DNA from: Podarcis vaucheri
Taxonomy: Eukaryota
DNA length: 64,000 bases
Assembly (NCBI GenBank): GCA_965113315.1
Contig: OZ220368.1
Reading direction: 5' to 3' (one strand)
In this document: one piece after another, positions 7,999 to 47,040 of the stretch
Layout of the letters: every line of letters starts with the position of its first letter
Numbering within the stretch: position 1 is the stretch's first letter
Notes under the pieces: model-generated
Told to the model about the DNA's origin: nothing
Seen by the model: only the letters and a program-made list of their open reading frames with translations
Databases searched by the model: none
Translations under genes and position numbers: made by a program

Positions 7999-8359
7999 GT
8001 AAAGGTAAAGGTACCCCTGCCCGAACGGGCCAGTCTTGACAGACTCTGGGGTTTGTGCGCCCATCTCACATCTATTGGCCGGGGGCCAGCGCTGTCCGGA
8101 GACACTTCCGGGTCACGTGGCCAGCGCGACAACGCTGCTCTGGCGAGCCAGAGCCGCACACGGAACGCCGTTTACCTTCCCGCTGGTAAGCGGTACCTAT
8201 TTATCTACTTGCCCCCGGGGGTGCTTTCGAACTGCTAGGTGGGCAGGCGCTGGGACCGAGCAGCGGGAGCGCACCCCGCCGCGGGGATTCGAACCGCCGA
8301 CCTTTCGATCGGCAAGCCCTAGGCGCTGAGGCTTTAGCCCACAGCGCCACCCGCGTCCC
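7999..8359 (-). mobile_element. Full-length young Sauria (Squam1) SINE
   Basis: GGGACGCGGGTGGCGC head, (ACCTTT)n tail, TSD CTGAGATAGAATAG (7985-7998 / 8362-8375). Confidence 0.92.
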
Positions 8360-8492
8360 TTCTGAGATAGAATAGAACTAGTTAATTTTATAGCTGCACA
8401 TGCAAACACTTTGTGTAGCAGAATATTACTCACCACCAGACTCTGGTGTTCAGCTTGGGAAGTAGCTTATCTCATTGTTTTTTCCTCCCCAG

Positions 8493-11223: not shown

Positions 11224-13311
11224 CTTGGGGAGAAATGTAATAAATAGATTATGTTGTCACTTTGCACAGCTCTTTTAAATTTTAAAATTCATCTAGTTTG
11301 CTTTCCTGTTGCTCTAGGATATCAGTCACTCTTAAACTTGGATTCTCTTAAATTTGCATTATCACCAAGTAATATTGCAAACCTTGAACCAAAATGAGGT
11401 ACTCTAGTGCTTAGCTTTTAGATCTCCAACATATTAAGATACTGTACTTAATTTCTTGCTGTAACAAATCAAGTGACTGAACAACAGCAACTTTTTTCAT
11501 TTTTTAAACTATTACAAAGGTAATTTTTTTTTGACAATTAGGTATTTCAAAAGACAGCCCAATAGGTAAGCAATTTGCATAGGTATTTCTGAATAAGCAT
11601 TACAACAAGACACCAGCTAATTTCCCCCCATCTCTTTGCACTTACAAATTGTAAAATAATTTCATGTTTCACAACAGTGAAATTCATATTGGGGACAGTT
11701 GAGAGAATCCGCTCAATAGATAATTCAATTTCAGATATGCCTTTAATTTACACTTAAACTTCCAGTAAAATAACAGCAGGAACTGTTGGTTGCCTTGTTT
11801 TTATTACAATCCACTGGTTTTTGCCTGAGGTATCTAATATTTGAAAGCTTACAAAAGATAGTCTATAATTATATGCTGATTGGTGTTTAAATAGCAAGGA
11901 AAGCCATACAATAGTGGAAAATTAAGAACAGGGTTTATTTGGCAATATATTTTATGTATTATGAACATGACCTAAATAGATATAATGTGGGACTACAGTG
12001 GAAGAGATACCTGTTTTAAAATATTTAAGACCTTCCATGAGAAACAAGAAACAGTGGGAAGAATAGAATACATATTCTAACACACATTTATTAGTGGATA
12101 GATCTTAATCATTTAAGTCTTTTGAGAGTTTGCAACTAGTGAAAAAATAATGGCAAGTAAGCCAAGACAATTGATTCTCACCGTGCCTAGAAGTAATCAA
12201 GGAAGCTACCCAGCAGTCTTTCCTTGCTAATGGGGTGCTTGCTAGTTTAGGCACACTCACATAAAATACTATCATTGTACTATTGCCTAATTTATTTTTA
12301 TTTCTCTAGACAACTGTACACTTTGTAGTATTTAGGTCTGCTTTAGCACGGTCTACCTGTTGAAGAAAATATTCATCACCAGGTGAGTAGAATTTAATAT
12401 TGGCTGCTTTCCCAACAAAGCGTGAGTTACAAGAAAGTACTTGACTGTGACCAAAGTAATGACAATGAAGCACATGACTTTTATTTTAGAAGGAGGATTT
12501 TGCTTAAAGGTACATGCACACTAAGGGAGCAATCCTCTGGAAGCATGCTGATGTAAATTAAGCCACTGTAAAATTGCACCAGATGCAAACTCCATTAAGC
12601 AGCAGGGCTGCTCCTGCCAAACCTGGTTGAGGGAAAACAAGCCTTTTAAAAATAAGTGTTCTACAGTAGGTTGCCAGCTCATGTGACTGAGCTGTATGAG
12701 CTTAGAATCCAGCCTTCCCTAGTCCTGCCCCATTACACCCCGTTTTTGAGGACAAACACCAGCTTCAGCTCAAGCGGGTTAAGCAACTTACACCAGGCTA
12801 AACTAAACTAGGATTGGGAGATCCGCTGCATCCTGAGCTGCTTGTGCTGGCAGATCTTTCCATAGGAGGGATATTTGCATGCATATAATTTGGAAAGAGC
12901 TGGAAACTTTTAACACCCCATATGGTCTGACTAATTTTTTTATTTCAAAAGTAGTGGCAAGAACAAATAATTTTAGGCACACCATTTCTGGAAGTCTTGT
13001 ATCTTCCCTCCCTGCATTCAGAAACACTGATCACACAAGATCCCCATGAGTGTATATCTTTGTTGTAAGGATGTAAGAAGCTGCAGGATATGTCCCACTG
13101 CTCTCTCCCCCTTCATGCTTAGAGGAACTGAGCTACTGTGCAAATTCCATGGGAAGCACAATCTCAACAGTATATTTTGGGATACCTAACAATATAGTTC
13201 ATGCTCTTCTTTCCAGAAGTTAAATTCACTTGATGTGGGTTCCATTTTATTATTTTATATTTGTGCAGTTTTACTTCCAGTAGTTCAATGTGGTTTATTC
13301 ACTATACTCAC

Positions 13312-13513
13312 TCTAATCCTCTAGCTGCGAAGCACTTCAAGTGGATGGTTATAACTTCAGGCATTTTGTCAAATAGAAGACTGCGTTCAGCTTCTGTGTA
13401 ATGACGACAGTTTTCACAGAAATATTTATCTTCTCCCACAATCCTCTCCACTGAAGCAAACTGGGAAATTGCCCACTTCAGAGTCTTCACTTCTGTTTTG
13501 GGATCTGGAGAAA
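13312..13513 (-). CDS. USP1: USP1 coding exon 7 of 8 (KYFCENCRHYTEAERS)
   Basis: ag/gt boundaries, 202 nt. Confidence 0.95.
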
Positions 13514-13945
13514 CTACAAAAGAAAGTTGCTTATATTTAGTTTGCCCAATACTGTAAGCAGTTAAATACAAATCAGGTTGTTGACCACGATAATATGAGT
13601 GCAGGACATGTGAGCAAATGTTTTTAAAAGTGCCAGAATCCTAGAGAACTACACATCAGGGTTCCAAAGCTTATGCTCTGCTGTGATCTCATGACTCTCC
13701 AAAGCCAATTCCTAATCTCCATACTTCAGCACAACCAAACAGAAGGCAGTTTCTTTAAGGTGGGGAAGGGGTTTAACACCATCCTAGAAACCTGCAGAAT
13801 CCTAGAGCCATGCATTCTTCCATGTAACTAAGACCTGTATTATAGGAAGTATCTGTCTTACGTAGATTGCCATGCTTCATTTCAGCACGTTACAGACTGG
13901 TATGATCACACATTTCTAAGCAACCAGAATGGGGACATTTTATAG

Positions 13946-14081
13946 CAGGCATAGGCAAACTCGGCCCTCCAGATGTTTTGGGATTACAACTACCATCATC
14001 CCTAGCTAACAGGACCAGTGGTCAGGGATGATGGGAACTGTAGTCTCAAAACATCTGGAGGGCCGAGTTTGCCTATGCCTG
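13946..14081. mobile_element. hAT-type palindromic MITE
   Basis: TIR CAGGCATAGGCAAACTCGGCCCTCCAGATGTTTTG; perfect 8-bp TSD TTTTATAG. Confidence 0.9.
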
Positions 14082-14194
14082 TTTTATAGGATAACAATAG
14101 CCATCAACTGAAATACCATACTGAGCACATTCACACCACAACCACCCCTCTGGCACACACCTATTTCTTCTCTCAGAAGGTCTGATCAGTGTGG

Positions 14195-14680
14195 TGCAAC
14201 TGCAAAAAGGCTAATGCAATTTTGGGGCTGTATTCAAAGAATCTTAGTTTCTAAATAACAGTGTCACCTTATTCTGTACATTTGAGGTACTATTTCCAGT
14301 TTTGGGTGTTGTGCTTTTAAAGGGCATATAAACAAATTGGAATTGGTTCAGTGGAGGATAATGAAAAATGGAAAACAAAGCCTATGAGAAAAGGTTGGAG
14401 AAACTAGGTATGTTTCACCTGGTGAAAAGACATATTTATTTAGAAAACTTATGCCGTACCCTTCCAATGCATCTGCATCTTCCAAGGTAGCTTACATTTT
14501 ATTAATGCCATGGAAAAAATTAAAAAGCACACAAATGCAACCAAATCAGCAGATGAAAACATTCTAAGAAAAATGTAACAAACCAACCAGATACTTGTAG
14601 GGCTGTCATACAGAAGAGGGCAAAGACTTGTTTCCTAAAGTAGTGACCTTAAGTTACAAGATTACTGTACATTTAAGCTT
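14195..14680 (+). mobile_element. Degenerate CR1 LINE fragment
   Basis: AAAAAGGCTAATGCAATTTTGGGGCTG, GAGGTACT..CCAGTTTTGGG, TATGAGAAAAGGTTG: CR1 ORF2 3' hallmarks. Confidence 0.6.
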
Positions 14681-15158
14681 GACAGTGGAACAAAATTACT
14701 GGGAAGGGGCCCTTGCTCTTGGGAGCTGAATAGCAATCTCTGCTGGGGGAAAGCTGTAGCTCTGAATTTCCTTCATCAAGCAGTGTTCACCTGCTGATCT
14801 ACAGCACAGAAGGGGAACTCCAGCCCATGGGCCTGATTAGGCCTAGCAGGGATCCTAACTTCACTCACAGTACTGTTTTCCCCAAACCATGCCCACCTGC
14901 CCCACCCTTGGCATCAAGTGTAAGCTGGGAAAAAGCTGTTTCCAAGAAAATGGTTGCATATGTACTTTAAAAGGTAATGTCTGTCAGCACCCATCAGGTG
15001 ACAAGTTGTCAGGATACAACTTAAAAAATAATAAAACTATATATAGAAATGTACACCCAGAATTTAACTACAGTTGGCAAGTAAAGTATGCATACTCCTA
15101 CCAAACACAGGCATGTGAATCACAGACATACTTAAAATTTACTGTGGCTTATACTTAC

Positions 15159-15329
15159 TTTCAGAATTCTCTTCTGTTTTTGAGAACTCTTCTTTTTGCA
15201 CTGGCACACTAATATCTTGAAAGTCTTCTCTTCTCTCAGTGAAACTCTCACACTCTAAGCATCGTGTTCGTAACACCAACTGACCCTGGAAGAGTCTCTC
15301 CACTAAATCGAAGACAGCTAACTCTGAAC
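15159..15329 (-). CDS. USP1: USP1 coding exon 6 of 8 (FQGQLVLRTRCLECE)
   Basis: ag/gt boundaries, 171 nt. Confidence 0.95.
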
Positions 15330-16498
15330 CTAAGGTGAAGCACATACCAGATTAGGTTAAACTCTTTTCCTGAATAGATATTATTAGAGTTCTCTGAATT
15401 TCATCATCTTACTGCAGCTCCTCGTACTGCATATGACACTACTCCTCCAAATCCCATATCTTTGAGCAGCTGTAGCAGCAAGAGGAAATGCTCCAAAGTA
15501 TAGTTCAAAAACTGTAAACCAAGGCAGGAAGTTCCATCCACAGCTCTTTGGATCTCTTTAGATCCCACTCCATATGAACAGTGTAGTTCTTATTAGGAAC
15601 TTCAATTATTAGGCACTACACTGGGGGTACATTCTTGATATTGAACTCGCTAATGTCATTGCAGCCCTATCTTTCAGATACAACCAGCACACCCCTAAGC
15701 ATGTTTACTCAAAAAGGGAGTATGTGAAGAAGAATCATTCATTATGCAGGAAATGGTTTTCCATAGGGCAAGATAAAAGATCTTTTAGCATACAGGCTTA
15801 ACCATTCTAGGCAGCTTCTTACATCTAAAAAAGAACTTTACCAATCTACCCCTACAAAGAAATCCCAGTATTTTCAGTTTTTGTTTTAAAGAATACTAAA
15901 ACTATTGATTTAATTTTCATTAAGTTAAATCCAGAAGTATTAGAAATGTTAAAACACTGACCTTCGCTGTATTACATTTTGGCTTGTTATATTTGCCAAC
16001 TCAGATCTAGTTAACCCAGCCCTGCAATATGCCACTGTTCTGCTTGCTTAGGGCAAGTATCAGCCATCTTTGCTTTGCCCTACAAGAAAGCTACACTGCT
16101 GGAACTAAACATATCTCAATCTCTTTCCACCCTGTGTCCCACCATGCATAGTTAATGTCAGGAGAAAGTGAGACACAAAACCCAGCCATGAAACATGGTT
16201 GGGTTAGTAGTCTTGCTTCTAGGTTTACAGCGCTATCCTAAAATGTTTACTCAGAAGTAAGCCCATTGAGTTAAATGATGCTTATTTCCTAGTATATAAT
16301 ATACAACTGTATATTATATAAGCCACAAAATATGTACAGCCTTCATAGCTCGACTGTGGTAAAAAAGAAAAAAGAGCCAAGCCAAGGAGGCAATTCATGT
16401 GACTTGTTCCATCTCTTCTACCACTAATGAAAACACAAAAATGTGGCCAGGTGATCTTAGCAAACTGGGCACACACACAAGTTACTCATAAGACTAAC

Positions 16499-17196
16499 CT
16501 CTCTGGCATCGTTTTTCAATTTCTTTTTCGACAGTGCTTTCAATAGATGATGGATCACAATAGTCTTCCGTTCCTTGGCTGCCATTTTCACACTTGCGGA
16601 AACTGTCTGTGAATCCAGAGTTTTCTATTTCTTTAACAGGCTCTTTGAACCCCAAGTTTGTTGTCAGCTTTCCCAAACTACAAAATTTGGACAGAATGCT
16701 AGGTTGCTTGCTTGAAGATTTTAACCAATTTAATCGAAGTCTGGATTTTTTATGGGTTGGTTTTGTATTTTCATTTTCAATGCAATGCTTAATGGTTGCT
16801 TCAGATTGATTTTCTAGTTTTTCCTCCAGGGCTTTTCTCTTTGACCTGGTCCGTCTCTGATTCTCTTCTATTCCATTTTTCTCTTTGGAAACTTTGGATT
16901 TTTTCTTTTCATTGCCATCCTCTGTATCATTTTTTCTTTTTGCATTTCCGTTAGTTTTATCTTCACCGTCCTCAATAGCTTGCTCAGAGATCAAACTAAC
17001 ATCTTCCTCAACAATACCAGTACTGACAATATCCTGATTAGTAGTTTTCTTTAGTTCAGCTGTGGGCTCTTCTAGTGATCTGGGTTTCAGTTGTTCCTTC
17101 AACAGCTGACATGTTTCTTGGATATGTCCCAATATACACTGCAATACTTCTTGGGCATCATGTTGCAAGTATCCCTCATACATGGGGTTCAGTTCC
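16499..17196 (-). CDS. USP1: USP1 coding exon 5 of 8 (QHDAQE box and basic insert with NLSs)
   Basis: ag/gt boundaries, 698 nt. Confidence 0.95.
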
Positions 17197-17723
17197 CTTT
17201 AAAAAAAATGCAACACATTACCTAATATACACAGTCAAAAAATAGCTTAATGACACAGTTTAGACAGGGATTCATGAGCATAACCAAATTTGGCAGGTGC
17301 CCTTCTTGGGAACACATTTTAAGTACAATTCAAGTTACTACACTATGTTTGGGGGATCCAAAATTAAAATGAGGTAGATGTACAGCTTCATCAAGTTCTC
17401 AGTTTTGCAGGCTATTATGTATTTAGAATTATGGAGATATATTTTTGTAAAACTAGTATATTACAGATAATTTGCTATTTTTGCCTATCAGTCATTTAAA
17501 TTTGACTGATTTGAGATCACAGAACAGGTTCAATCTGCATTGTTGCTGAGCTATCTCACATTATAAAATGACTAGAAATGAACACATCTACTGTAAGAAG
17601 ATGCTGGAGAACATATTTGTGAATAGGAATAATTCAATAAACTTAAAAGGCTGTCTTTCTGTAGAAAATTACAATATTCCATATCATTTGCTTCAGAAAT
17701 AGTTAGAAACACATCTTTTGTAC

Positions 17724-17884
17724 CTAAGCGTATTTAGTAGTCTTCTTGGCTGAGTTGCAAGTTCATCTGTGTATTTATCAGAATTTAAGAGAAAGCTGGC
17801 CTGAAGCTGTTCAACTGAAACAATCAAAGAGTGTAAACTGCAGACCAATTCATAGCTTGCAAGAGAATCTTCTTTACTTTCCCC
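17724..17884 (-). CDS. USP1: USP1 coding exon 4 of 8 (LASYELVCSLHSLIVSVEQLQASF)
   Basis: ag/gt boundaries, 161 nt. Confidence 0.93.
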
Positions 17885-18776
17885 CTATAAAGACAGAGAA
17901 AATAAGTGTTTGCATTTGAAAGTTAAATTTCTTGCCTTTTTAGCTAGTTACATAATTTTATAATCCTTTTTCATAATATTGATGTGTTTAATTTCATTTT
18001 GCACATCAGCTCAAGCTATTATGATTCTGTGATACAAAATTTCAAATGTATCAATGTTATCATCATTGTACCGATATTAGGTTGTTATTTACTTAATGCC
18101 AAAGACTGAATTCAATTAAATGACCCTTTTACTGTCTGAAAGTGACTATAGAACTACATTAACAAACGAATCTTCATTGTGCTTCAGTCCTAATTCTATG
18201 CCATACCATATAAAAAGATACCATATAAGGCATCATCTGTCTATCCTGGAACACATTTGACTAGTCTTAAAACAAGGGTGAGGAACAACCAGCATTCAGG
18301 TGTCCTACTTTTACCCACAAGGTCATTTCCTGCAAACCATGTTCGCCTGCCCCACATCTGACATCACATAAGACACCAGGTATAGACAGCTACTATGGAA
18401 CAATCAGGATCCTAAAATGAGTTCCCTAAAACGCCTTTGCAAGTAGGGCTACCTGTTAGCATCAATAAGCTGATGGAGGTTTAGTGCTCTTTCAGAGGGG
18501 CTTGCTCCATTACATAAAAGTGGTTTGCATCCAAACCACTTAAAACTGAGTTTCCACCCACCGTCCAGCCTTATAGCAAGTGGTTTCAATGCAAACTGCT
18601 TTGTGCTAATGGGGCTAGCACCTCTAAAGGCATGCCAAGTCTAAATTACCCTGCTACAGAAGTGACATCTTTCAAAATAAACTTTCTTCCAATGGAAGGA
18701 TTTGTTTATATTGAACTTATGATATACTAACTTTTGTTATGTACAATATGCCCAATAATAGATAGTATGTTCTCAC

Positions 18777-18872
18777 CTTATCAGTGTCACCTTTTAAGCT
18801 TTCCTTCTTGTTTGTAATTATATTAAATAGTTGTTTCACTCCAGTCTTAAAGCCAGGGCAAAAATAAAGCAC
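18777..18872 (-). CDS. USP1: USP1 coding exon 3 of 8 (VLYFCPGFKTGVK)
   Basis: ag/gt boundaries, 96 nt. Confidence 0.93.
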
Positions 18873-19646
18873 CTAAAATAGGAACAAGGCATGCAGTACA
18901 ATGAAGGAAAACAGAATTCGTGAAACACATATTTAGCTATTTATTTGTGTGATGTAGCAGAATGAGTATTTCACTTAGATCAGGGAGGCCTGCTTTCAAA
19001 TCCCTGCTAAGTCATGAAGGACACTGGTTGACCTTGGACCAACCGCTAGATGGCCTGATTCACAAAAAATTATATCCTGGCTTATGGGTGTATAGAACAC
19101 CTTTGCAATCAAGCCAAGATAATAAGCTAACTTCAAACCATAGCTTAATATCCTCACAAGTCATTAACCATAGGTTTCCAGGCTCGTGTATAACAGAAAC
19201 CTATTTTTATAAACAGAATATTGAACTGCTTAGCCATTTGCTCAGTGGGTAGAACAAAAGGGCATGGAAGGGTTATGCCACTCATTAATAAACTAGTTTA
19301 TTAAGCCATTGATTTGATTGTGCAGTTTGACCCAAACTTGCAGAAAAAGCAAGATAATAAATGTAGGATGACCCAATGCATGTGCCACTTTGAGTTCCTT
19401 GGAGGAATAGGATACAAATTTAGAAGTTGACATCAACAGATGTAACTGTAGATAAACAGAAGTGAATAAATAAGTCTAAATATATATCTGTTGCAAAATA
19501 AGACAACCATACTGTCAAGATAAATCTTAAACATATGTCTCTATGATGAGCGAGTGTCAGGCCTTAATAAATTGCTGAGTATATAAGGTGTTATAGTTAT
19601 GACCACCTGTCTTTTACTATTATCTGATTATTCTGAAATCTGATTA

Positions 19647-19859
19647 CAGTCATACCTCGGGCTGAAGTCATACCATGGCGACCCGGAAGTAACGGAGTGC
19701 ATTACTTCCGGGTTTTGCCGCTCACGCAGACACTCAAAATGACGTCACACGCATGTGTGGAAGCAGCGAAATGCGACCTGCTCACTCGCGTCTTACGTTT
19801 ACTTCAGGATGCGAAATGGGCTTCAGAACAGATCCCGTTCATATCTAGAGGTACCACCC
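19647..19859. mobile_element. Tc1/mariner-like MITE remnant
   Basis: TA|CAGTCATACCTCGG ... GAGGTACCAC termini. Confidence 0.55.
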
Positions 19860-20838
19860 TATACTGTTATTTTTTTAAAGTGTTTTACAGTACATTGGTT
19901 CTTAAGAACTTTCCCCCTGCCCCACTGTTTCATTCATGTTGTTTGAGTATTATTTCTAAATGCCATATACTGGCTTCAAAGTTCTCATATTATTTTTATT
20001 TTTTTAAGGTTACATCCATTACAAAAAACCAAACAAACTCAAACAGAAATAAAGCTATGCTACATAGCTTGTGTATCCAAGTTTTCTCAATCATTCTGCT
20101 TCGATTTTGGAACTCCAATCTCCTGACAAGGCCTGGTTATCAATAGGCAGGTGAAACTGTTTTGATCTAGCAGATGTTTGGATAAAGGAGGCATAGTGGG
20201 TCAAGCTACTGCAGGTTTTATCAGTACTATGGTTTTAATGTTGTTTTCATGTTTAGCTTTCCTTGTTTTCCCTTTGAGCTAGGTAAAGCAAGCATTTTTA
20301 AAGCACTTCCTCTGAAAATGTGAAGTTAAAAGACAATGGCTTGACTTTTGATGGATTATACTCATAGTACAGCCTCTTCAAATACACCTCATTTTAATAT
20401 TTTGCAAACCATACTAAGAAAACAATATCCTAGAGCCTGCCACATACCTTCAATGTTTGTACAATGTATTTGTTACACAACTTATGTCCATCAGGACATA
20501 AGATGGAAAAGGAATGATTATAACAAAAAGCAAATTGCCCAACTTATGAGCACGTCCTGAAACCTGGTCAGTGCCTGCACCACCTCCTGGGAACCACCAG
20601 TATGCTGCCGTGGGTTCCATGACAAAAGATGGAATATATATGGAATGAAATAAATTTTAATATTGTGCAATGGGTCTACAATAAGAGAAAGGTAAAAATC
20701 TTGCTCTCTACAGCCTCTTTCCTCTGTTGCTTCCTTCATGCAGCACACGTAAATACCCACCAAGTAAGCTTTTAATTCCCTTAATTCACACAAAATTACT
20801 TTAGACAACACTATATTTTTAACCTGTTATGAACTTAC

Positions 20839-20968
20839 CTGAAGTATACTGTTAAGATAACACGTGTTACCAAGATTGTTCAAGCCCACAAAAGGTAGCA
20901 TGTTGTCTTTCTTCTCACAGCAGATAGGGGACGGTGAAAGTGGCTGTGTTGCAGGAACTACCTGGTCA
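20839..20968 (-). CDS. USP1: USP1 coding exon 2 of 8 (Cys box GLNNLGNTCYLNSILQ)
   Basis: Catalytic Cys motif, ag/gt boundaries, 130 nt. Confidence 0.96.
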
Positions 20969-21082
20969 CTGTCATACAAAAAAAGATATTTTATTCCAAA
21001 ATACACACGTGCAAGGTGTCTTCTAAATTTAGAAATTGACTTTTTACTAAAATACTGTTTCTTAATCCCTGCTATATGTAGT

Positions 21083-21442
21083 AAGGTAAAAGGTAAAGAA
21101 CCCCATGACAGTTAAGTCAAGTTAAAGGCAACTATGGGGTTGTGGCGCTCATCTCGCTTTCAGTCCAAGGGAGCCGGCGTTTGTCCACAGACAGCTTTCT
21201 GGGTCATGTGGCCAGCATGACTAAAACGCTTCTGGCACAACAGAACACGGAAATGTCGTTTACCTTCCTGCCGCAGAGGTACCTATTTATCTACTCGCAC
21301 TGGTGTGATTTTGAACTGCTAAGTTGGCAGGAGCTGGGATAGAGCAAGGGACGCAGGTGGCACTGTGGTCTATACCACTGAGCCTCTTGGGCTAGCTGAT
21401 CAGTAGGTTGACGGTTTGAATCCCCACAACGGGGTGAGTACC
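21083..21442 (-). mobile_element. Older Sauria SINE with inverted 5' segment
   Basis: 3' body on minus strand 21347-21083; 5' head GGGACGCAGGTGGC on plus strand 21348-21442. Confidence 0.8.
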
Positions 21443-22502
21443 ACTATTGAGGTACCACATAAAAATAACACTCCAAAAATAATGAATTAGCCGCCTCTAA
21501 CTGTACAATAAGATAATTAAAGTACAAAAATTATAAGTACAAAAATGGTATTGATAACTCTTGTGTTTTCCTTGACAACATAACAGATTTCTTTCTGGCC
21601 AGGAATTTTTCAGTGGCTAAAGTATTATTATCCCACACAAGCTCCCGTTTTCACATAAGTATTAGGCCAACAATATACTGTATGGTCATAATTAGACCAG
21701 GATTTAAAGTTTATTCCTAGTGCAGCCTATTGAATTAGTTTTCCATTTTGACACCTTAATCTATTTTTTTAAAAAAATTAAGTATTTTCTCATATGGAAA
21801 CAACCTGCTAAAGTGTAAGAAACCTGCAATCAAGAATGAAGGTGTGCAGCACAATCTTGTGTGTAGAAGTTAATCACACAGAATACAGTAGTTCTTACTT
21901 CCCATTACATATTCTTAGGCCTGTATCCTTTAAAACCTTTCTACCAAATTTAATGTTTTAAACAGTTCACTTTTGTTATTCCACCCAAAGCAGGCTATGT
22001 ATCCAACTCTGCTCTCTATCCAACTCTGCTAAGTCCTTTGACAGAAAAAAGTTCAAGGTCTAGTACATTCCTAAATCTCTTCCACTGGGCTCAATGGAGT
22101 TTTGAAAACTTAAACTTGGGTTGTATTATGCCTGTTCTACCCTCAATTAGCATAGAATGTACATAATGCTACCTATATACAAAACAAATTGTCACCAAGA
22201 TAGAATGCCAGTAATCAAACTGATTTCAGTTATAACCCATTATGTTAACAGCCTACCATTACAGTCTTCTGTTAGAAAACATTAAAAGCCAATTGAAGGC
22301 TGGGATATACATAAGCCAATGCAAATATGTGTAGTTACAGTAATTAAGCACAGCCAATAAGATTTTTGCATAACTGATACAGTAAGATACAGAACTTTAA
22401 GCATACACTGTAACACAAATATAGAAATGAAGATCCACCAAAATGCCTTTAAAAGTTCTCTGCACATTGTGATGAGTTAATGAAAAATAAACGCTTACAT
22501 AC

Positions 22503-22672
22503 ATTTCAGAACATTCATATTCTGAAGTCTTTTGCTCATTTTCTGCCGATTCTGCAAAATCCAGAGCTCTTTTTGTTTCCCTTTTCTGAAAGAACTTCAG
22601 TGAAAGTCTGCTTCTTTTCGTGGGGGTGCCTCTTGAAAGCCCGCTACTGTCACTGGGCAGCACGCCTGGCAT
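22503..22672 (-). CDS. USP1: USP1 first coding exon (MPGVLPSDSSGLSRGTPTKRSRLSLKFFQK)
   Basis: Matches the USP1 N-terminus; 170 coding nt; donor gtatgt. Confidence 0.96.
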
Positions 22673-22779
22673 TTTCCGCCCTCACCAGAGAACCCCGAGG
22701 GACGAACGCAATAAAACTGCAACCTGTAGTCATGCCTGTCAAAAGCATATAAAACACCACGTTTGTATGTTTTGTAAGC

Positions 22780-24470
22780 GGCAGCGTGCATTGTGACGAC
22801 ACAGCTTCACAAGAGCAACTGGAGCACACGCCGAAGTGGGCCGGGAAACACAACTGCGCTTTGATTAGCGCGCGATGCAACTCAAAACTGCGACCGCTTA
22901 ATACAAAGTTCCCTTTGACCTAGACACTAAAAGCCGGCGGCTTCTGAACTGTTTTTTGGGTTGTTAAGGAGAAGCGAAACAGTGCAGGAATCTGACGCTA
23001 CCGGCCAGGGCGGAAATCCTATTTACTGCAGAGTGAAGCCCCAAATCGCCCCAGGTACTTGACTTAAGAACGTCGGGATGTCGTTACTTTTCCGGTACAC
23101 AACCCCGAGGCATCTCCCCCTCCGCCCCGCCCTAAGTTTTGAGGGCAGCTCGAGAAACGACCCCCCAAAAATACTCTCGGCCCGGCACTGGATGCGAAAA
23201 GGATGAAAACCGAAAGCCGAGAAAACCTTCCATAGGAGGAAAGCAGGCAGACACGCTCCCCCTGCACAGACGCCACGGGCGGAGCCAAGGGAAAAGGGGA
23301 GAAGGGCAACTACCCCCCCAAATCAATAAAAATACTTCACTGAGGTTCTGCATCCCCCCCCCCTTTCCACACGAAGCCTGGCTCCGCCCGTGACAGACAA
23401 AAAAAAAAAAAAAACCAGCAGCGGAGAGTTCCGTAGCGCGCCTTCCACTTCACAACTAATTTCCGTCTCAAGGGTGAAGAGGAATATTCTTCCCTGAAGC
23501 TCCACTCGGGCAGGCAGGGCTGCGGCTCGAAGCGACAGAGAACCAGCAGCGGCCCGCAGTCGTTCCCTCGGAACCCCCCCCCCCCGGGGAACCAGGCGGC
23601 GGTAAAGAGCAGGCAGAGTTGTGCCCCCGCCCGCTCATGGTGGCGCGGCCGCCGCATCTCCTCACCCGCCGCCGCTACATCTTCTCGTCCTGGCCAGGTC
23701 CCCGTGGGCGAGGCGCGGGAGGGCGCTGCCCCGGAATAGCCCCTTCCCCAGCTGCTCTATAGACTGAGGGGATCTGGGGTCCCTCCAAGCTCAGTCACAC
23801 ACCCACCCGCCCGCGACGGGAAACTTGGCGCGTTTTGCACACCGCCAGGACCCCTCGTTCCCCCACCGCGTTTCTCCCGCCCGGCGACTCGGGGGTTGTC
23901 CTGAACGGATGCCGGTTTGATAATAGCCACGGTCACCGCCCGCTGAGGCGGTGAAAAGTTCGGCAAACTGCCTCCCTAGTTGGTTTGGGGCTCGCCGCCG
24001 CTTCTGGTGCAAGCAAAATCGCTGCCTCCCTGCCTCCCTCGTTCTTTTGGGCTCAGGCGGGTGGCTTGGACAGCTCGGAAGGGTCCTCGCGGAAACGCGC
24101 GCGTGCAACGGTAGAGGCCTGGGCTGGAAAGCTTAAAGCCCGCCGCCAACAGGAGACGGATGGAAGAAAAGGAAATACGAATCGGCCCCACCCTGCTCCG
24201 TCGCTTGACCAATCGCGGCCTGCTTTGACTAGCCAATCACTTTACCCCCCAAGGCCAAAAGAAAAGCATAGTGCTCTTTTAAAAGTGACAGTGTAACGGT
24301 TGCTGGGACGCAGAGGCCTGAAGGAACGTAGGGGAGAGAAAAAGGCGCGAAAGGGGAAACTAGGTGGAGTCGTAGATCTATTAAAAAAAGGGTAGACTCA
24401 CACGCGCTGGCGATTTCCGTTTTGACTTTTAATGCTCGTTTTGGGCTTCTCGGAAGTGAAGGCGAGAAGT
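22780..24470 (-). promoter_or_regulatory. USP1: USP1 CpG-island promoter and non-coding first exon (candidate donor near 23665)
   Basis: High CpG density; CCAAT at 24209 and 24233; E2F site TTTCGCGCC at 24352-24344. Confidence 0.8.
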
Positions 24471-29287: not shown

Positions 29288-29567
29288 TATACATATAGGG
29301 TGGAATGCCATGTAGTGCTAAGTCACTCATTCTAACAGTGCAAGGATTTTTGTTTGTGTATCCCCTCAATCTGTTCTAGGAGTTCCCCTAACACTCTGAG
29401 GAGGGTGTGATGCATGCGTGGGGAGTCCCATTGCACAAGCAGAAATTGTTGCACAGCATCAGAAAGCAGGTGGTGGAGGGAGCAAACCTGCTTACGGTAT
29501 GTGCAATGAAAAATGTATGGATGGATAAGATTAAACCAGCTCTAATTCTATAAACTTTATAACTGCA

Positions 29568-30256
29568 TGTAGACATGTTATTTCTATGTGCCTAGTATAG
29601 TAAAACATTGGTTCTTTTCCTCCTGCATTCTGGGAATTATTTCTATCTTCTCTTTGCTTCTAAAACAGACTATAAGGCCTGTTTATAATCAATCACGCTT
29701 CTCTCCCTCTCTTTCACGCACAAGGCTAAAGGTCTGTGCCTGGCACAGATCTTTCTGTATAGCATTCCTTACATACCACACTTGTCTTCTTTAGTTCACC
29801 TTTAGTTCACAATGATGTGTAAATCACAATGATGTGTTAATCCTCAATGTATAATTAATTGTGTGAGTTTATATAACAATCTAAACATTAGTAAACACCT
29901 TCGTTATAACATTATCAATCTTAGTCATAGGTGGATTAAGAGCTTATATGCCTGTCTAAATACAGCTCTAACATTCTGTCTTTCATGTGCCAAAGATCTA
30001 TGGAGCTATGTAAGCCCGCCTTACATACAAATGAGCCAATAGGATTTCAGTTTCTTTGTCTTGTATTGAGCCAATCAGCCACTGGCACATTCGTGGCCAT
30101 GCTTTTTGTAACTTTGAATAAAAGGAGATGCTGTGAGGCTAGAGGAGGAAGAATCTCTCTCTCTCTCACTTTCATCTGGCACACACGCAAGCTCTCAGAA
30201 AGAAAACATCTCGTTGTCTGTCTTTATTCATCTCTACAAACCCCCAAAAACCAACA
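29568..30256 (+). repeat. ERV 5' LTR (689 bp)
   Basis: Identical to the 3' LTR except C30212/T34456; two GAGCCAAT boxes; AATAAAA at 30117. Confidence 0.97.
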
Positions 30257-30258
30257 TC

Positions 30259-30276
30259 TGGTGACCCCGACGTGAT
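30259..30276 (+). promoter_or_regulatory. ERV primer-binding site, tRNA-Trp
   Basis: TGGTGACCCCGACGTGAT, the 18-mer used by avian sarcoma-leukosis viruses. Confidence 0.93.
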
Positions 30277-30284
30277 CCTGAAGA

Positions 30285-30293
30285 AGGGTAAGT
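30285..30293 (+). promoter_or_regulatory. ERV major splice donor
   Basis: AGG|GTAAGT between PBS and gag. Confidence 0.7.
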
Positions 30294-30384
30294 AATCAGA
30301 TCCCAATAGAGATCCCTTTAGAGCCAAAAGCATTCCTCATACTAACCCGACTGGGAAAAAGTCTAAAGCGCTTAATTCGTTAGT

Positions 30385-31929
30385 ATGGGAGGGGATTTAA
30401 GTAAGGTGCAAAAGGCTCACGCGAAAGAGCTTCTTTCGTTAGTAAGACAGACAATAGACAAAGTTCAAATTTCTCTAAAAGAGATTGAACAGCTACTGCA
30501 GGAAATAAATCATCAATGTCCTTTTTATCAAGCAGAAGGCTCATTGCAAATTAGCACATGGGAGAAGATCGGCAAAATTTTATTTTCCGAGCCACGTGCT
30601 CCAATCAGCTGCCTACTCACATGGCAAAAGTGTGCTAACGCCATAGCAAAATTAGAACAATCTTCTCTTTCAATTTCTCCATTGCTGGCAACTGCAGAAA
30701 CCTCCCCCCCGCCATACCCTCTGATTTTGCCCCCTTTGTCTCCTTCATCACCTAGCCGAAATCCCCCTCCCTTTTCTCCTTCCCTTGCTCCTGAACCGTC
30801 TCAGTTTACAAATTCCCCCCCAATCCCCCCTCACCCCCCTTCTCTGCCTGAACAAGCAAATCGGCATGCCTTTGTCCCTTCCTCTTTGTCTCTAGACCAT
30901 GCTGCTTTGCCAAAACAATATGGAGCCGTCCGTGCTGGGCTTTTACAGGCTAAGCAAGATGGGCTTTTTTCATTGGAAGAAACAGCTGCATGGGCTGGTG
31001 AAATGCCATTAATTTTTCCTCTCACATATCAAAATGCTCCTGGAGGTCAGCAATTACAAGTTTATCATGAAAAATTGCCTTATGCTGTCATGAAAGATCT
31101 CAGGAAAGCCATTAGTGATTCAGGTCTTAAATCTTCTTATGTAATGGGTATTATAGAGGGCATTTCTACCTCTTATACAATGATTCCGAGTGACTGGAAA
31201 GATTTGATGAGGATGATGTTATCTCCAGCGCAATTTTTAGTTTTTGAAAATGAATTTAAACATGCCGCCATAGCTCTGGCTGATCCAACGCATACAGCAA
31301 GCCAGCTTTTCGGCGCTCCTCCATTTGAGACCCTGGCTGCCCAAGCCGTGTTGTCACCTTCACACTTTCAGCGCACTGCAACTTGCGTGCAGCGTGCATT
31401 TCGTAAAATTCCTGTCTCAGGACAGCCACTGAGTTCCTTTGTAAATGTTAAACAGCAGAATACAGAGCCATACCATCAATTTGTGGATAGATTGAAGGAA
31501 TCTATCTGTAGACAGATAGATAATGAAACGGCTCAGAATGAGTTGCTAAAAAAATTGGCTTATGAGAACTCTAACATGGACTGTAAAAAAATGCTGCAAT
31601 CAATCATAAGCCGTTCAACATATTCCCTTGCAGATTTGATAAAAGCGTGTTCGGAAGTAGGGAGTCAATCTCATACAATATCTTTGTTTGCCAATGCACT
31701 TCAGGCTTCCGTGAGACAAACAGGAAACTGTTATAATTGTCACCGTCCTGGTCATTTTGCAAAGCAGTGCAAGGCCCAAGGTGGGACTGCACAGAAGAAT
31801 AATAATGCAAATACCACGACCAGACCTTCCAAAAAATGTCCAAAGTGTGGGAAAGGCTATCATTGGGCAAATCAATGTAGGTCTCAGGGAAACTTCACTG
31901 GGCCCAGTCTCTCGGGCCCCAAAGAATAG
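30385..31929 (+). CDS. gag: ERV Gag polyprotein (514 aa), intact
   Basis: MGGDLS myristoylation motif, beta-type matrix CPFY..GSL..WEKIG, PPPY late domain, MHR VKQQNTEPYHQFVDRL, two CCHC knuckles. Confidence 0.96.
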   Translation: MGGDLSKVQKAHAKELLSLVRQTIDKVQISLKEIEQLLQEINHQCPFYQAEGSLQISTWEKIGKILFSEPRAPISCLLTWQKCANAIAKLEQSSLSISPLLATAETSPPPYPLILPPLSPSSPSRNPPPFSPSLAPEPSQFTNSPPIPPHPPSLPEQANRHAFVPSSLSLDHAALPKQYGAVRAGLLQAKQDGLFSLEETAAWAGEMPLIFPLTYQNAPGGQQLQVYHEKLPYAVMKDLRKAISDSGLKSSYVMGIIEGISTSYTMIPSDWKDLMRMMLSPAQFLVFENEFKHAAIALADPTHTASQLFGAPPFETLAAQAVLSPSHFQRTATCVQRAFRKIPVSGQPLSSFVNVKQQNTEPYHQFVDRLKESICRQIDNETAQNELLKKLAYENSNMDCKKMLQSIISRSTYSLADLIKACSEVGSQSHTISLFANALQASVRQTGNCYNCHRPGHFAKQCKAQGGTAQKNNNANTTTRPSKKCPKCGKGYHWANQCRSQGNFTGPSLSGPKE

Positions 31930-31935
31930 AGAGAT
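31887..31935 (+). promoter_or_regulatory. gag-pro -1 ribosomal frameshift signal with H-type pseudoknot
   Basis: G GGA AAC slippery site, 6-nt spacer, stem1 GGGCCC/GGGCCC, stem2 GTCTCTC/GAGAGAT. Confidence 0.88.
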
Positions 31936-32663
31936 GTCAGCCTTTGGTTTCTGCTGCTGCAAAAGTTACTAAAAATATGCCTTCTGAATTTGCCATTGAT
32001 TTGATTAATCAAGAGACCAAAAACACTGCATTGCCTGGTGAAATCATAATCATGGCCAGCCAAATGGCAGGTCCACTTCCTCCTAATATCACAGGTTTAA
32101 TTTTACCTAAATTTTCTGCTGCAAAACAAGGCATTCATGTCATCCCAGGTGCCTTGCCTCCTGACTATGTGGGCACAATCATGGTTCAATTTTGGAGCCA
32201 TATGCCCATGCAGTTAACAAAGGGTGAATCTTTTGCTCATTTGGTGATGCTGCCTTCACCACCTGATGTTGTTTGCGCTATTGACACTAATCTGCACAAG
32301 CTCTCTTTATCTTTTTCCCCACAGCTTCTAGCTGTGACCCAACGTATTGGAAGAGAGAAACTCCTTCGTAAGTATAAAATCAATGGAAAAATATTAGAGG
32401 GTCTGATAGACACTGGTGCGGATGTTTCGGTCATTTCCAGTAATTTTTGGGAACAAACTTGGCCGCTTGAAACTTCTCCTGAAGTGTGGGGCGTGGGAGG
32501 TAATCAGGCTTCTTGCAAAAGCGCACAGTGGCTGCCTGTCTCTTTGCCTGATAGCTCTGAAGTTATTGCATATATTCAGCCCTGTGTGCTCAAAATTCAT
32601 CTTAATTTGTGGGGAAGAGATTTGTTGCAACAATTACAAGCAACCATTCAAATAAATGAGTAA
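31887..32663 (+). CDS. pro: ERV Pro (degenerate dUTPase-like domain plus aspartic protease), -1 frame from gag
   Basis: LIDTGADVSVI, GVGG flap, NLWGRDLL; dUTPase-like GPLPPNITGLIL...DYVGTI...GESFAHLVMLP. Confidence 0.93.
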   Translation, partial: GKLHWAQSLGPQRIERCQPLVSAAAKVTKNMPSEFAIDLINQETKNTALPGEIIIMASQMAGPLPPNITGLILPKFSAAKQGIHVIPGALPPDYVGTIMVQFWSHMPMQLTKGESFAHLVMLPSPPDVVCAIDTNLHKLSLSFSPQLLAVTQRIGREKLLRKYKINGKILEGLIDTGADVSVISSNFWEQTWPLETSPEVWGVGGNQASCKSAQWLPVSLPDSSEVIAYIQPCVLKIHLNLWGRDLLQQLQATIQINE

Positions 32664-32724
32664 GTTTGTGCTTCCACTTACTTGGAAGTCCACTGATCCT
32701 ATATGGATTCCGCAATGGCCTCTT
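32656..32724 (+). pseudogene. pol: pol remnant: first 23 codons (start of RT), then deletion
   Basis: MSKFVLPLTWKSTDPIWIPQWPL matches the class II RT N-terminal P(L/I)xWK...P(V/I)W(V/I)xQWPL motif. Confidence 0.88.
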
Positions 32725-33611
32725 ATAATGCTACTTGTGCACGTATGGTCAACTGTACGAAACAAAACTGCGTGAAAATGGGCAAAAATAACTTTAATTG
32801 CTCTGATTATGTAAATATTTCTTATATATATAAGTACACAGAACTGCCAGCAGGCTGGTTTTGGTCCTGCCCAGGTTACACTTTCAATTACATTCCGGCA
32901 AACATTAGTCACGGCACACCTTGTTGTTTAAGCCGTCTGTCTATCATATTGCCTGGAAAACATCATTTCTCTTACTCTAGACATCAGCGTAGTGTTGAAT
33001 TGTCTGATGACTGTGATGATCTTGTCTCTCTCCCTAGCAGGTCTGAATACATCTCTTTAGCTGTCTCTCTCTTAGGTGTTCCAGGTTTGGCTGTGCGTAA
33101 TAGCGCAAATATTAATTCCTTAGCTTGCTCTGCAGCAAAATCCCTGAACTTTACCTCTCAGGCGCTTCATCTTCTCAACACAGAGCAAGCCGAACTTCGC
33201 AACGGTTTATTAAGGTCGAAATCTACTTTGGACTACCTACTCATGGTACATCATTATGGTTGCGAACAATTCAAGGAAATGTGCTGTTTTAACATCACTG
33301 ACAATTCTAAGGCCGTTCAAAGGCAAATTTCTCATTTGCAAAATCTCACTCACCACATTAAAAAGGATATCGGATTTTCCGGACTCTGGGATTCCTTTTC
33401 CTTGTGGTCTATGGCGTGGCTCCCTAATCTCGATTGGCTACGCAATGCCTTTTTTTATGTAATTATTATTGTATGTATATTAATTTTGTTTTGTTGCTTT
33501 CTCCAATGCATTCCTAGCCTTACAAATCTTTTTTCTCGCCTTCTCTCTCCTCCACCACCACCTAGCGCGCTCCTTGCAGCCTATTATGCGAAATGGCAAC
33601 GCCACCAGTAA
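32703..33611 (+). CDS. env: 5'-truncated Env (SU C-terminus plus complete TM), ASLV-like, no signal peptide
   Basis: LPAGWFWSC..PCCLSRL, furin site RHQR (32979-32990), Cys-flanked internal fusion peptide, CEQFKEMCC (CX6CC), TM helix. Confidence 0.92.
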   Translation: MDSAMASYNATCARMVNCTKQNCVKMGKNNFNCSDYVNISYIYKYTELPAGWFWSCPGYTFNYIPANISHGTPCCLSRLSIILPGKHHFSYSRHQRSVELSDDCDDLVSLPSRSEYISLAVSLLGVPGLAVRNSANINSLACSAAKSLNFTSQALHLLNTEQAELRNGLLRSKSTLDYLLMVHHYGCEQFKEMCCFNITDNSKAVQRQISHLQNLTHHIKKDIGFSGLWDSFSLWSMAWLPNLDWLRNAFFYVIIIVCILILFCCFLQCIPSLTNLFSRLLSPPPPPSALLAAYYAKWQRHQ

Positions 33612-33788
33612 GAAAAAACAAAAATAAAAGGGGAGATGTGGGTAGGATTATTTTGAGATTCGTTGGCACACCACTAATCTTGAAGTACTTTTGCCCCATC
33701 AAGCCTAGCAGTATTATTTCCGGCATTTGATGGCAAACCACTAATCCGGAAGTATTGTTGCTTTATTCACCTAGTTGCCTTACCTCGC

Positions 33789-33811
33789 AAAGAAGAAAAA
33801 AAAGGAGGAGA
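33789..33811 (+). promoter_or_regulatory. ERV polypurine tract
   Basis: AAAGAAGAAAAAAAAGGAGGAGA directly before the 3' LTR. Confidence 0.9.
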
Positions 33812-34500
33812 TGTAGACATGTTATTTCTATGTGCCTAGTATAGTAAAACATTGGTTCTTTTCCTCCTGCATTCTGGGAATTATTTCTATCTTCTCTTTG
33901 CTTCTAAAACAGACTATAAGGCCTGTTTATAATCAATCACGCTTCTCTCCCTCTCTTTCACGCACAAGGCTAAAGGTCTGTGCCTGGCACAGATCTTTCT
34001 GTATAGCATTCCTTACATACCACACTTGTCTTCTTTAGTTCACCTTTAGTTCACAATGATGTGTAAATCACAATGATGTGTTAATCCTCAATGTATAATT
34101 AATTGTGTGAGTTTATATAACAATCTAAACATTAGTAAACACCTTCGTTATAACATTATCAATCTTAGTCATAGGTGGATTAAGAGCTTATATGCCTGTC
34201 TAAATACAGCTCTAACATTCTGTCTTTCATGTGCCAAAGATCTATGGAGCTATGTAAGCCCGCCTTACATACAAATGAGCCAATAGGATTTCAGTTTCTT
34301 TGTCTTGTATTGAGCCAATCAGCCACTGGCACATTCGTGGCCATGCTTTTTGTAACTTTGAATAAAAGGAGATGCTGTGAGGCTAGAGGAGGAAGAATCT
34401 CTCTCTCTCTCACTTTCATCTGGCACACACGCAAGCTCTCAGAAAGAAAACATCTTGTTGTCTGTCTTTATTCATCTCTACAAACCCCCAAAAACCAACA
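33812..34500 (+). repeat. ERV 3' LTR (689 bp)
   Basis: Copy of 29568-30256. Confidence 0.97.
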
Positions 34501-35195
34501 ACTGCAGTCTGCAAAAATAACTGCACTTGGAAAACCAAAAGCTCCCCATATACTTTGCCAAAAATAACCACACACAGCACTTGAAAAGCACAGCTTTCCG
34601 GGAGGCAGAATCTTTAAGGAGCTGAAAGGAGTCTCCATTACAAAGCATTACCCCTGCAAGAGAGTCTCCTGCAACCTTTAGTTGTTTCTCTGCTTCACAT
34701 AAACCATGGAAACCCCAGCCTATTTAAAATCCTACTTCGGCCCCAGGGTATTTCAACATTAAACCTATAAATCTAATAGGCTTCCTGCATTGTCAAAATT
34801 ATGGTGCGAGTTCTGTGGACACTGTGCAAATTGTACACATACCATATGTTCCTTTATTAACCTCCCTTCTGAGGCCTCAACACTAGGTAGAGACCGCACA
34901 GCTGGAAAGACTGCAAAATGCTCTGATTTTCCTGAAGTGCCAGAGTGACAAAATCCATTTGTCTTTGGCAGAGTAGCCTAATTTCTGATCAGATGCCTTC
35001 AGATTGTTTTGCTCCTAGAGTTCTGCTAATGCAGGAAGTTTTGTTTCATGTAATGGTCTACAATTTATAAGACAAGAACCAGCTGTTAAATAGTATGCAT
35101 GGTGGTAAAACAAAATAGTAAGGGCACTTGCCTAATTTGCAATACTGTACTAATACTACAGAACAGCATTTTTCAAACTGGATAACTGCAGCATA

Positions 35196-44924: not shown

Positions 44925-46675
44925 ATCTGAGGGTTGTAGGTTCAAGAGCCTCAGGTTCTACTATCTTTGGTTTCTGTTTTATTAAGCTTTGCTCTTTGAT
45001 TCCTGCAGCTTGCATAGCAATCTAACCTCACATGTTCAATTTGCAAGAACACCAGCAACACCTAAGCCTAGGAAATAGTACCTTTGTTGCATAACTGGGC
45101 CAACTAATGCTGTATATCTTGTGAAACTATATTGGGTGGATTGACTCAGGAGCACATTTCCAGAAGAGAAAAGAAAACGTATTTTTAGCCATAAATAAGT
45201 TTATTGCTGAGAAACAAGTTGGGAAGGATGAATTTCCCCCTTCTAGGGCATCTTGCTCTTAGCACCGGAGTAGCATTGCATTGCTGGTTTCAGTATAAGG
45301 AGAAAGATTGATGAGTGGGACTTGGTGTGTCTGGGAACCTGATCTTGCATTAATGAGAGCACTGCTATACGACTGCCAAGTGTCTCCTGTCCAGGAGCAG
45401 ACAGAAGGCCAAAGAGCAAAACAGAGTGCATACCTAACAGTCTCATTTGCATTGCTGGAACAACACAAGCCCAAGCAAGGCCATGTCTTGTCAGATTCTC
45501 AGTGTAAGTGTGTGAACCGTGTGTTGTGTTGGGTGCAAACAGTGCTTGTTTTCATATTCTAATTTATTTAAGTGTGTACTATTGCCTAGTAATAGGACAG
45601 ATTTTTTTAAAAAGTGTTTTCTGTGTGTTTGAACCGTATCACAAGACAACCCAAAAGCAGCAGCAGCAGCTGAAATAATCACTGATTTAGAAATGGCAAG
45701 AGGCAACTATCTCAAGATGTTTCCCACTTGTCATATGTTTGGCAATGATAGCTTGGGTCCATGTTCCAGTCTGTTAAAGCCTAGAGGCTACTTGAAAGGG
45801 TAGACAGACTAGAGGGCATCCAAAGATGCTTGGAAAATGTGTGGGCCATTTTATAGGACCCCACCCCGCCCCCTCACAGTTTGGTACTGGCCACTGAAAA
45901 GATCTGTGGTAGCTCTTTCCTCCCCTCTGCTCACGGAGAAAGGACATAGCTAGGCAAATATCTGGATATTTCCTCAACATTGAGAGGACTGTCTTGCAAT
46001 GACTTCTGGAATTCTAGTTTGGCACATGGAAAGGGAGTTCAGATGGCCCATTGCTCACTACAATGGCAGCTGCATGTGCTGGCTCTAAGCTTCCTAGTCA
46101 TAGCATGCATGTATTGGGGCCCAAAGATGTGCTGGGCTAATACACCATGGCATTAACCTTTTGCACCAACCACTTTTCTGGTACGTGGCACAATACTATG
46201 AAATGACAACATTGTGACCTTACATGGGTCATGCAATTCTATGAAAGCTTCCTTGAAATGGATGGTGCTACTTCACCTACCATGTATTAACAAAGCTTGT
46301 TGTTTCACAGGCTTCTTTGGGCATTCTACTGTATTCTGGGATATTTTTATGAACAAGCAGTTTATACATTTTCATATATATATATAAAATAAATAAGAAT
46401 AGTCATATACTTAATTGGTCATAACCACATTAGAAGCATATTCCTAGTGTAGGGTCAGCATCCATTGTAGTTTTATTCTGCAACATTCATCAGTGAATGG
46501 CTGTGTGCAAACTACACATTTAAAGCACATTCAAAACCCACTTCCTCCCTCAAAGAATTCTGGGCATTGTAGTTTGTTAAGGGTTGCTGGAATGCTGCAT
46601 TCAGATTGGTTATAACGCTAGAACTTCTGTCTTGATTTCTCATGTTCTTTTTACACTGCAGTACCTGTTGAGTTA

Positions 46676-47040
46676 GGGACGCGGGTGGCGCTGTGGGCTA
46701 AAGCCTCAGCGCCTAGGGCTTGCCGATCGAAAGGTCGGCGGTTCGAATCCCCGCGGCGGGGTGCGCTCCTGCTGCTCGGTCCCAGCGCCTGCCCACCTAG
46801 CAGTTCGAAAGCACCCCCGGGGGCAAGTAGATAAATAGGTACCGCTTACCAGCGGGAAGGTAAACGGCGTTCCGTGTGCGGCTCTGGCTCGCCAGAGCAG
46901 CGTTGTCACGCTGGCCACGTGACCCGGAAGTGTCTTCGGACAGCGCTGGCCCCCGGCCAATAGATGTGAGATGGGCGCACAAAACCCAGAGTCTGTCAAG
47001 ACTGGCCCGTTCGGGCAGGGGTACCTTTACCTTTACCTTT
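46676..47040 (+). mobile_element. Full-length young Sauria SINE
   Basis: About 99% identical to 7999-8359; TSD ACCTGTTGAGTTA. Confidence 0.92.

Follow-up and report, generated by a model that had tools for sequence, protein, structure and literature searches.

Endogenous retroviruses (ERVs) that have lost pol and are mobilised in trans are well known, and the pol-less layout described here is of this known kind. The mouse class II elements IAP I-delta-1 and ETn/MusD are internally deleted, retain intact long terminal repeats (LTRs) and need proteins supplied in trans (PMC1331978). The ERVK[2-1-LTR] D-type of cattle is young, betaretrovirus-like and devoid of pol, and has been proposed to outcompete its helper (PMC10924933). 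Avian leukosis virus (ALV)-like proviruses of grouse and EAV-HP of chicken have an LTR-gag-env-LTR arrangement of 3.2–5.1 kb, in which pol is deleted and env is of the alpharetrovirus type (PMC10820513; PMC4607243), and EAV-HP is believed to have been spread by a helper (PMC4607243). Here we describe a comparable provirus on the plus strand at positions 29568–34500 of a 64,000-nt stretch of the Podarcis vaucheri genome (assembly GCA_965113315.1, contig OZ220368.1; hereafter the window). It is 4,933 nt long, with an interior of 3,555 nt. On balance, we lean towards the view that it derives, through a recent deletion, from a lacertid-type class II retrovirus that was itself active not long ago, that the deletion arose by a jump of reverse transcriptase (RT), and that the element is present as a single copy or in a young small cluster.

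Compared with these systems, the coding content of the Podarcis element is better preserved. In I-delta-1, 1.9 kb of gag-pol is missing, and ETn has no coding capacity, both being proven multi-copy, mobile forms (PMC1331978), whereas gag and pro are whole in the Podarcis element, which was read from one locus. According to PMC10924933, the bovine D-types contain no intact open reading frame (ORF) and carry a swapped central segment, while the Podarcis element has a simple deletion with open gag, pro and env remnant. The grouse and chicken elements are bird alpharetroviruses (PMC10820513; PMC4607243); the present one is from a reptile and resembles betaretroviruses in gag-pro, where it carries a dUTPase domain and a −1 gag-pro frameshift site. 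The principal features of the provirus were the following:

29562–29567 (+), left target-site duplication, 6 bp, ACTGCA, the same as 34501–34506
29568–30256 (+), 5' LTR, 689 nt, TG...CA, with CCAAT boxes at 30036 and 30071 and AATAAA at 30117
30259–30276 (+), primer binding site, 18 of 18 letters as in the Rous sarcoma virus (RSV) consensus of the Rfam RF00467 alignment
30385–31929 (+), gag, 514 codons, open, betaretrovirus-like, with Gly2, a PPPY late-domain motif, capsid and two CCHC knuckles
31881–32663 (+), pro frame, 260 codons, open, with a degenerate dUTPase-like domain and an aspartyl protease with a DTG active site
31887–31893 (+), putative slippery heptamer for the −1 gag-pro frameshift, with a downstream stem of −14.6 kcal/mol
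32656–32724 (+), RT stub of 23 codons, beginning at an ATG of its own that overlaps the pro stop, in the +1 frame relative to pro
32715–32724 (+), deletion junction, with 4–10 nt that can be read in two ways, closing the RT stub or opening the env remnant
32715–33611 (+), env remnant, 298 codons, with the C-terminal half of the surface subunit (SU), a furin site, an internal fusion peptide, CX6CC and a membrane anchor
33213–33230 (+), unusual hexapeptide in the immunosuppressive-domain (ISD) region
33789–33811 (+), second polypurine tract, 23 purines, adjoining the 3' LTR
33812–34500 (+), 3' LTR, 689 nt
34501–34506 (+), right target-site duplication, 6 bp, ACTGCA

Paired TG...CA LTRs, a target-site duplication, a primer binding site and a polypurine tract identified the element as a recently integrated ERV. 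The LTRs were identical at 688 of 689 nt, the sole mismatch being C at 30212, within a CpG, vs. T at 34456, and the chance of an exact 6-mer duplication was 2.4e-4. An earlier note on this DNA, made from its letters alone, had reported the same LTR identity with its change at a CpG, the perfect target-site duplication and the intact primer binding site, all of which were recovered here; its single intact polypurine tract does abut the 3' LTR but is one of two such tracts. The RSV_PBS model as a whole gave a weak match to the element (E 3.7, under the gathering threshold). The primer of RSV is tRNA-Trp. Under an assumed rate of 1–4e-9 substitutions per site per year, the single LTR difference corresponded to 0.18–0.73 Myr (limits 0.005 to 4 Myr), and the younger side of this range is favoured because the lone change is a CpG transition. 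Approximately 2.6 interior substitutions (0.07–14; 3,555 nt) were expected since insertion. With one LTR difference in 689 nt, the element is very young, as had been noted before; the note was also right about the recent activity of a full-length relative.

Since the match to RT ended after 23 codons and integrase was absent, the earlier statement that the element cannot reverse-transcribe or integrate by itself was confirmed. RT relatives matched up to 32724 and not further, and env relatives matched from 32718. Pro at 32719 and Leu at 32722 were common to 97% and 88%, respectively, of the 76 RT relatives with the motif among 120 matches listed (Q and W being fixed by the search pattern), while the next six residues occurred in 0–4% of them. 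Of the env-frame residues, those at 32718 and 32721 were common to 6/6 relatives and the three at 32706–32712 to none. The two readings overlapped by 4–10 nt, with no filler. The join to the middle of SU had previously been placed near 32724 after 23 RT codons; this holds for the end of the match, but the RT frame itself remains open past the junction to a stop at 32773–32775. The missing segment would amount to about 856 Pol and 193 Env codons, or roughly 3.1 kb as estimated from the lengths of relatives.

The gag, pro and env frames had been described as uninterrupted, and all three were indeed open, with the reservations that pro includes a degenerate dUTPase part and that the 302-codon env frame (ATG 32703 to 33611) opens with codons that are RT sequence in another frame. 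Pfam matches covered the matrix, the capsid, two zinc knuckles, the dUTPase and the aspartyl protease, whereas neither the env frame nor the RT stub had a Pfam match, and a domain scan gave no G-patch match in the pro frame. The Gag motifs looked ordinary. The defective-interfering or dominant-negative role raised in the earlier note is speculative, the evidence pointing neither way. The dUTPase domain (31980–32250) lacked the motif-III aspartate, which was kept in 8/8 P. lilfordi models and in solved enzymes. This aspartate has a catalytic role. Two CCHC knuckles, a dUTPase N-terminal to the protease and a −1 gag-pro frameshift site marked the element as class II (betaretrovirus-like), with the markers used as given in PMC1224870. 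Only 0.05–0.11 disabling mutations were expected per frame since insertion (upper limits 0.3–0.6, with an assumed indel rate). Because so few were expected, and because an env remnant of no use is equally open, the open gag and pro frames reflect youth rather than selection; the intactness of gag and pro, which the earlier note had taken as a sign of a helper-dependent ERV, loses its force as such, given that this env remnant lacks a signal peptide.

Analysis of the env remnant showed 232 of 298 residues identical to the full-length P. lilfordi env (P0001) and 16 of the 17 cysteines that the latter has over the same span. Its fusion peptide was flanked by Cys 100 and 138 and its CX6CC cysteines were 183-190-191 (remnant numbering), in agreement with avian gamma-type env, which is defined by a cysteine-flanked internal fusion peptide and CX6CC (PMC3758190). 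Among solved structures, its transmembrane subunit (TM) was closest to that of avian sarcoma and leukosis virus (ASLV; E 2.3e-9). Neither a signal peptide nor a complete SU was present: the first 60 residues contained no hydrophobic stretch and 193 residues of P0001 had no counterpart. Because of this missing hydrophobic stretch, the product would not be a normal glycoprotein. A neutral env remnant is expected to break by 4–8% divergence, so that selection on it would have ended only recently (less than about 4–8% neutral divergence ago). In the rate test without the hexapeptide, no excess of changes was seen with two of three outgroups (5 vs. 4 and 13 vs. 10). The element thus separated from its intact ancestor recently, as the remnant is open, retains all but one of those cysteines and shows little excess change. 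A faster evolution of this lineage was considered and rejected, as the capsid rate tests were not significant in 10/10 cases and those of env were significant with one outgroup only.

The hexapeptide in the ISD region departed from the family pattern at 6/6 positions: the residues of the element occurred in 0, 1, 0, 0, 5 and 3 of the 79 relatives whose motif was recognisable among the best 150 of 468. All six changes score at least 0 in BLOSUM62. Neither the hexapeptide nor the junction peptide occurred in any of the related proteins compared, and an origin of the hexapeptide as a copy or inversion of nearby sequence was rejected (0 extra 10-mers in the window). A Rec-like leader in the env of relatives was likewise dismissed, with weak matches (E 0.019 and 0.075) in 2/5 env proteins scanned and none in P0001.

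In the favoured scenario, RT would have jumped between two short matching stretches during minus-strand synthesis, skipping about 3.1 kb that comprised almost the whole of pol and the 5' portion of env, and the shortened DNA would then have been inserted normally by the integrase of the intact parent. The resulting copy would be single or part of a young small cluster. As all visible cis signals were kept, it could be re-copied by a full-length relative, and Gag and Gag-Pro particles could be made that would lack RT, integrase and a working Env. We infer both the origin of the deletion at the RT stage and any expression of the element. Aberrant minus-strand transfer is the usual source of large internal deletions that leave the LTRs intact and show short homology at the junction, and its signature was found in 334 sequences (84.6%) of an HIV-1 set (PMC12657518). 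Deletion before integration is likelier than a later chromosomal loss, because only about 2.6 interior substitutions are expected since insertion. Also in favour of this scenario, the protein searches yielded nothing above 82% identity to the env remnant or above 71% to Gag. A deletion before insertion does not imply a helper, because the parental particle already held RT and integrase; the earlier inference of helper mobilisation is consequently not warranted, as such a deletion can arise in a single round of reverse transcription inside the particle of an intact parent.

Several observations weigh against this explanation. Microhomology also marks chromosomal end-joining (10.64898/2026.10.12.758617). 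Three multi-base oddities, namely the dUTPase motif, a stop before the RT ATG and the ISD hexapeptide, predate the insertion, and the third outgroup in the env rate test without the hexapeptide was nominally significant (18 vs. 7, p 0.043). The protein searches, moreover, are blind to unannotated repeats. Finally, a young deleted copy met by sampling frequently belongs to a family, because in several systems the young insertions consist mostly of deleted forms present in many copies: IAP I-delta-1 and ETn are examples (PMC1331978), and the bovine D-type constituted 85% of 221 sequenced elements (PMC10924933).

The element could instead belong to an established helper-dependent family, with the same junction at many loci copied by the RT and integrase of a full-length relative and with its own Gag-Pro favouring packaging and competing with the helper. 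We regard this as possible but rather unlikely. The presence of all cis signals together with the absence of RT and integrase fits a non-autonomous element, and precedents for such families are common, EAV-HP and the pol-deleted proviruses of grouse being among them. Two P. lilfordi models on different contigs (P0012 and P0014, of seven models compared) lack the same 4 residues, and with them a fusion-loop cysteine, which points to env-defective relatives at more than one locus; the loss here of a dUTPase aspartate that all eight P. lilfordi models possess is also in line with such a family, and complementation would be easy if Pol were made apart from Gag-Pro in the lineage. Against this, no second copy, solo LTR or other match to the LTR or interior was present elsewhere in the window, and the protein searches (14 matches from 848 candidates; 44 of 7,998 scored; best 150 of 468) recovered no near-identical protein or helper, although unannotated repeats would escape them. 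Any such family would have to be young, as the env remnant is undecayed, and the intactness of gag and pro carries no signal of selection. Three P. lilfordi models on different contigs (P0009, P0011 and P0012) have an RT-to-SU join at a different place from that of the present element. They were not counted as an independent deletion family, since other shared joins look like predicted splices; their common join may reflect either another family of deleted copies or a splice that was predicted repeatedly.

Alternatively, a full-length provirus could have integrated and later lost the segment in the germ line by microhomology-mediated end joining. Short direct repeats mark such repair too (10.64898/2026.10.12.758617). 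The CpG transition between the LTRs indicates that some time has elapsed since insertion, but this time was short. Kilobase deletions in the germ line are moreover far rarer than substitutions, whereas a single infection round yields them often, 41% of proviruses being defective in a single-round HIV-1 model (as cited in 10.64898/2026.10.12.758617). We consider this route improbable. An assembly artefact joining two parts of a repeated element is highly improbable: young repeats are error-prone in assemblies, but the target-site duplication and both flanks are consistent, there is no N anywhere in the window, and the clean join has an overlap of a few bases, probably too short to mislead a long-read assembler.

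The nearest named relatives in all three genes were ERV gene models of Podarcis (P. lilfordi and P. muralis), with 62–78% protein identity, which is too distant for a helper, although some of these models hold RNase H and integrase. The capsid was 68–71% identical to five Podarcis models and grouped with them with support of 94/99, just under the threshold of the tool (25 rows), and pro was 76% identical to the P. lilfordi model P0031. Among solved structures, Gag was closest to HERV-K and other betaretroviral entries. In place of the tRNA-Lys site and beta-type TM usual in betaretroviruses, the element has the RSV consensus primer binding site and a TM nearest to that of ASLV. Read from the sequence, the parent was a mosaic of betaretrovirus-like gag-dut-pro, an RSV-type primer site and an alpharetrovirus-type env. 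In reptiles, alpharetrovirus-like envs are widespread, and PMC13568524 lists them for Podarcis, Lacerta and Zootoca; Env-Mab3 of Mabuya, 41% identical to the env remnant, and these reptile envelopes belong to the same env class as the remnant. The bat-related env set in PMC13568524 is linked to a gammaretroviral pol, whereas the remnant is truncated and is attached to a class II gag-pro. Two further proteins were observed in the comparisons. One (P0019), annotated as being from the tick Nuttalliella namaqua, has a Gag 43% identical to that of the element and grouped with a Pogona Gag, possibly as the result of a reptile blood meal. The other (P0176, 687 residues) has a dUTPase, a protease and an env 52% identical to the remnant but no RT motif, and may be a pol-less relative or a spliced model.

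Besides the −1 gag-pro site, two sites matching splice patterns are relevant to how Pol could be made in this lineage:

30285–30293 (+), putative splice-donor-like site with GT at 30288, the sole donor-pattern match in the element in a pattern scan
32534–32554 (+), speculative splice-acceptor-like site, one of 12 in a pattern scan, for which the RT ATG is the first ATG downstream

The RT frame is +1, not −1, relative to pro, so that the −1 pro-pol frameshift usual in betaretroviruses does not apply, and no slippery heptamer was found at 32560–32700. In beta-like ERVs, −1/−1 frames are the norm, although +1 calls made up 27% in a degraded set (PMC1224870; PMC3482500). The C-terminus of pro and the +1 overlap into RT are shared with P. 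lilfordi and P. muralis ERV models, and a +1 overlap over 14 codons was the only fit of the P0031 protease C-terminus to the pre-RT peptide of P0012 (two loci, both gene models). The overlap thus seems native to the lineage. The stop directly before the RT ATG (within 32650–32665) has no counterpart in P0012. A spliced pol mRNA (donor at 30288, acceptor-like site ending at 32554), a stop-restart and a +1 shift at the stop would each be compatible with this arrangement. A methionine was located 12–26 residues before the RT motif in 6/12 first and 35/77 other matches (120 matches listed, 31 of them lacking the RT motif); this frequency was discarded as evidence for a Pol with its own AUG, because ORF callers start at Met. 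The RT of P0012 retrieved class II Pol proteins, the element itself retaining just 23 RT codons. Neither the lacertid lineage nor an own-AUG +1 pro/pol overlap was found described in searches of open-access literature, and this family may be listed elsewhere.

Downstream of env, a further tract and a pair of hairpins precede the polypurine tract at the LTR:

33610–33636 (+), first polypurine tract, followed by TG and not used as an LTR border
33638–33759 (+), two tandem related hairpins (33638–33697 and 33706–33759), candidate export element or remnant of another LTR

The 155 nt between the tracts had a folding energy of −46.2 kcal/mol (z −3.96), and 0/200 shuffles were as stable. The twin hairpins were 77% identical over 52 nt and 3/24 of their pairs were changed on both sides, a number reached by 56/500 shuffles (two sequences, hand-fitted structure). 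No Rfam export-element model matched the element, and the one Rfam match in the window at the gathering threshold was tRNA-like and lay outside it. The hairpins are a candidate for an RNA export element or a relic of a donor LTR, the LTR origin being suggested only because the first tract is followed by TG. The order of env, purine tract, non-coding piece, second polypurine tract and LTR is that of SERV-K/MER11 of macaques, in which a piece of a donor LTR between two tracts exports unspliced RNA (PMC11379458). That piece measures about 1 kb and was tested for export (PMC11379458), whereas the one in Podarcis, of about 150 nt with twin hairpins, is known from sequence.

Taken together, these features would also fit a lacertid class II lineage that makes Pol apart from Gag-Pro, exports its RNA by the twin hairpins, acquired by capture, and has given rise to a young multi-copy satellite furnished with Gag-Pro of its own and borrowing only Pol and Env. 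Pol would in that case be translated from its own AUG, via a spliced mRNA or a stop-restart at the AUG overlapping the pro stop, with no −1 frameshift. We hold this combination, including its route to Pol, to be a long shot.

Elsewhere in the window, exons of a ubiquitin-specific protease (Pfam UCH), which we take to be USP1, were located on the minus strand at 10503–24300, with a GC-rich, promoter-like region near 23–24.3 kb; the provirus, about 5 kb upstream of this gene, is oriented away from it. An inverted pair of 364 nt with 99% identity (7997–8360 and 46675–47038) represents a very young short repeat family, presumably similar to short interspersed elements (SINE-like). An exact direct repeat of 74 nt was present at 60969–61042 and 61366–61439, 397 nt apart.

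If Pol is made through a +1 pro/pol overlap with its own AUG, this strategy would be unusual for an orthoretrovirus. The locus indicates that a mosaic retrovirus integrated in the germ line of the lizard very recently, and the species may still harbour a segregating intact relative.

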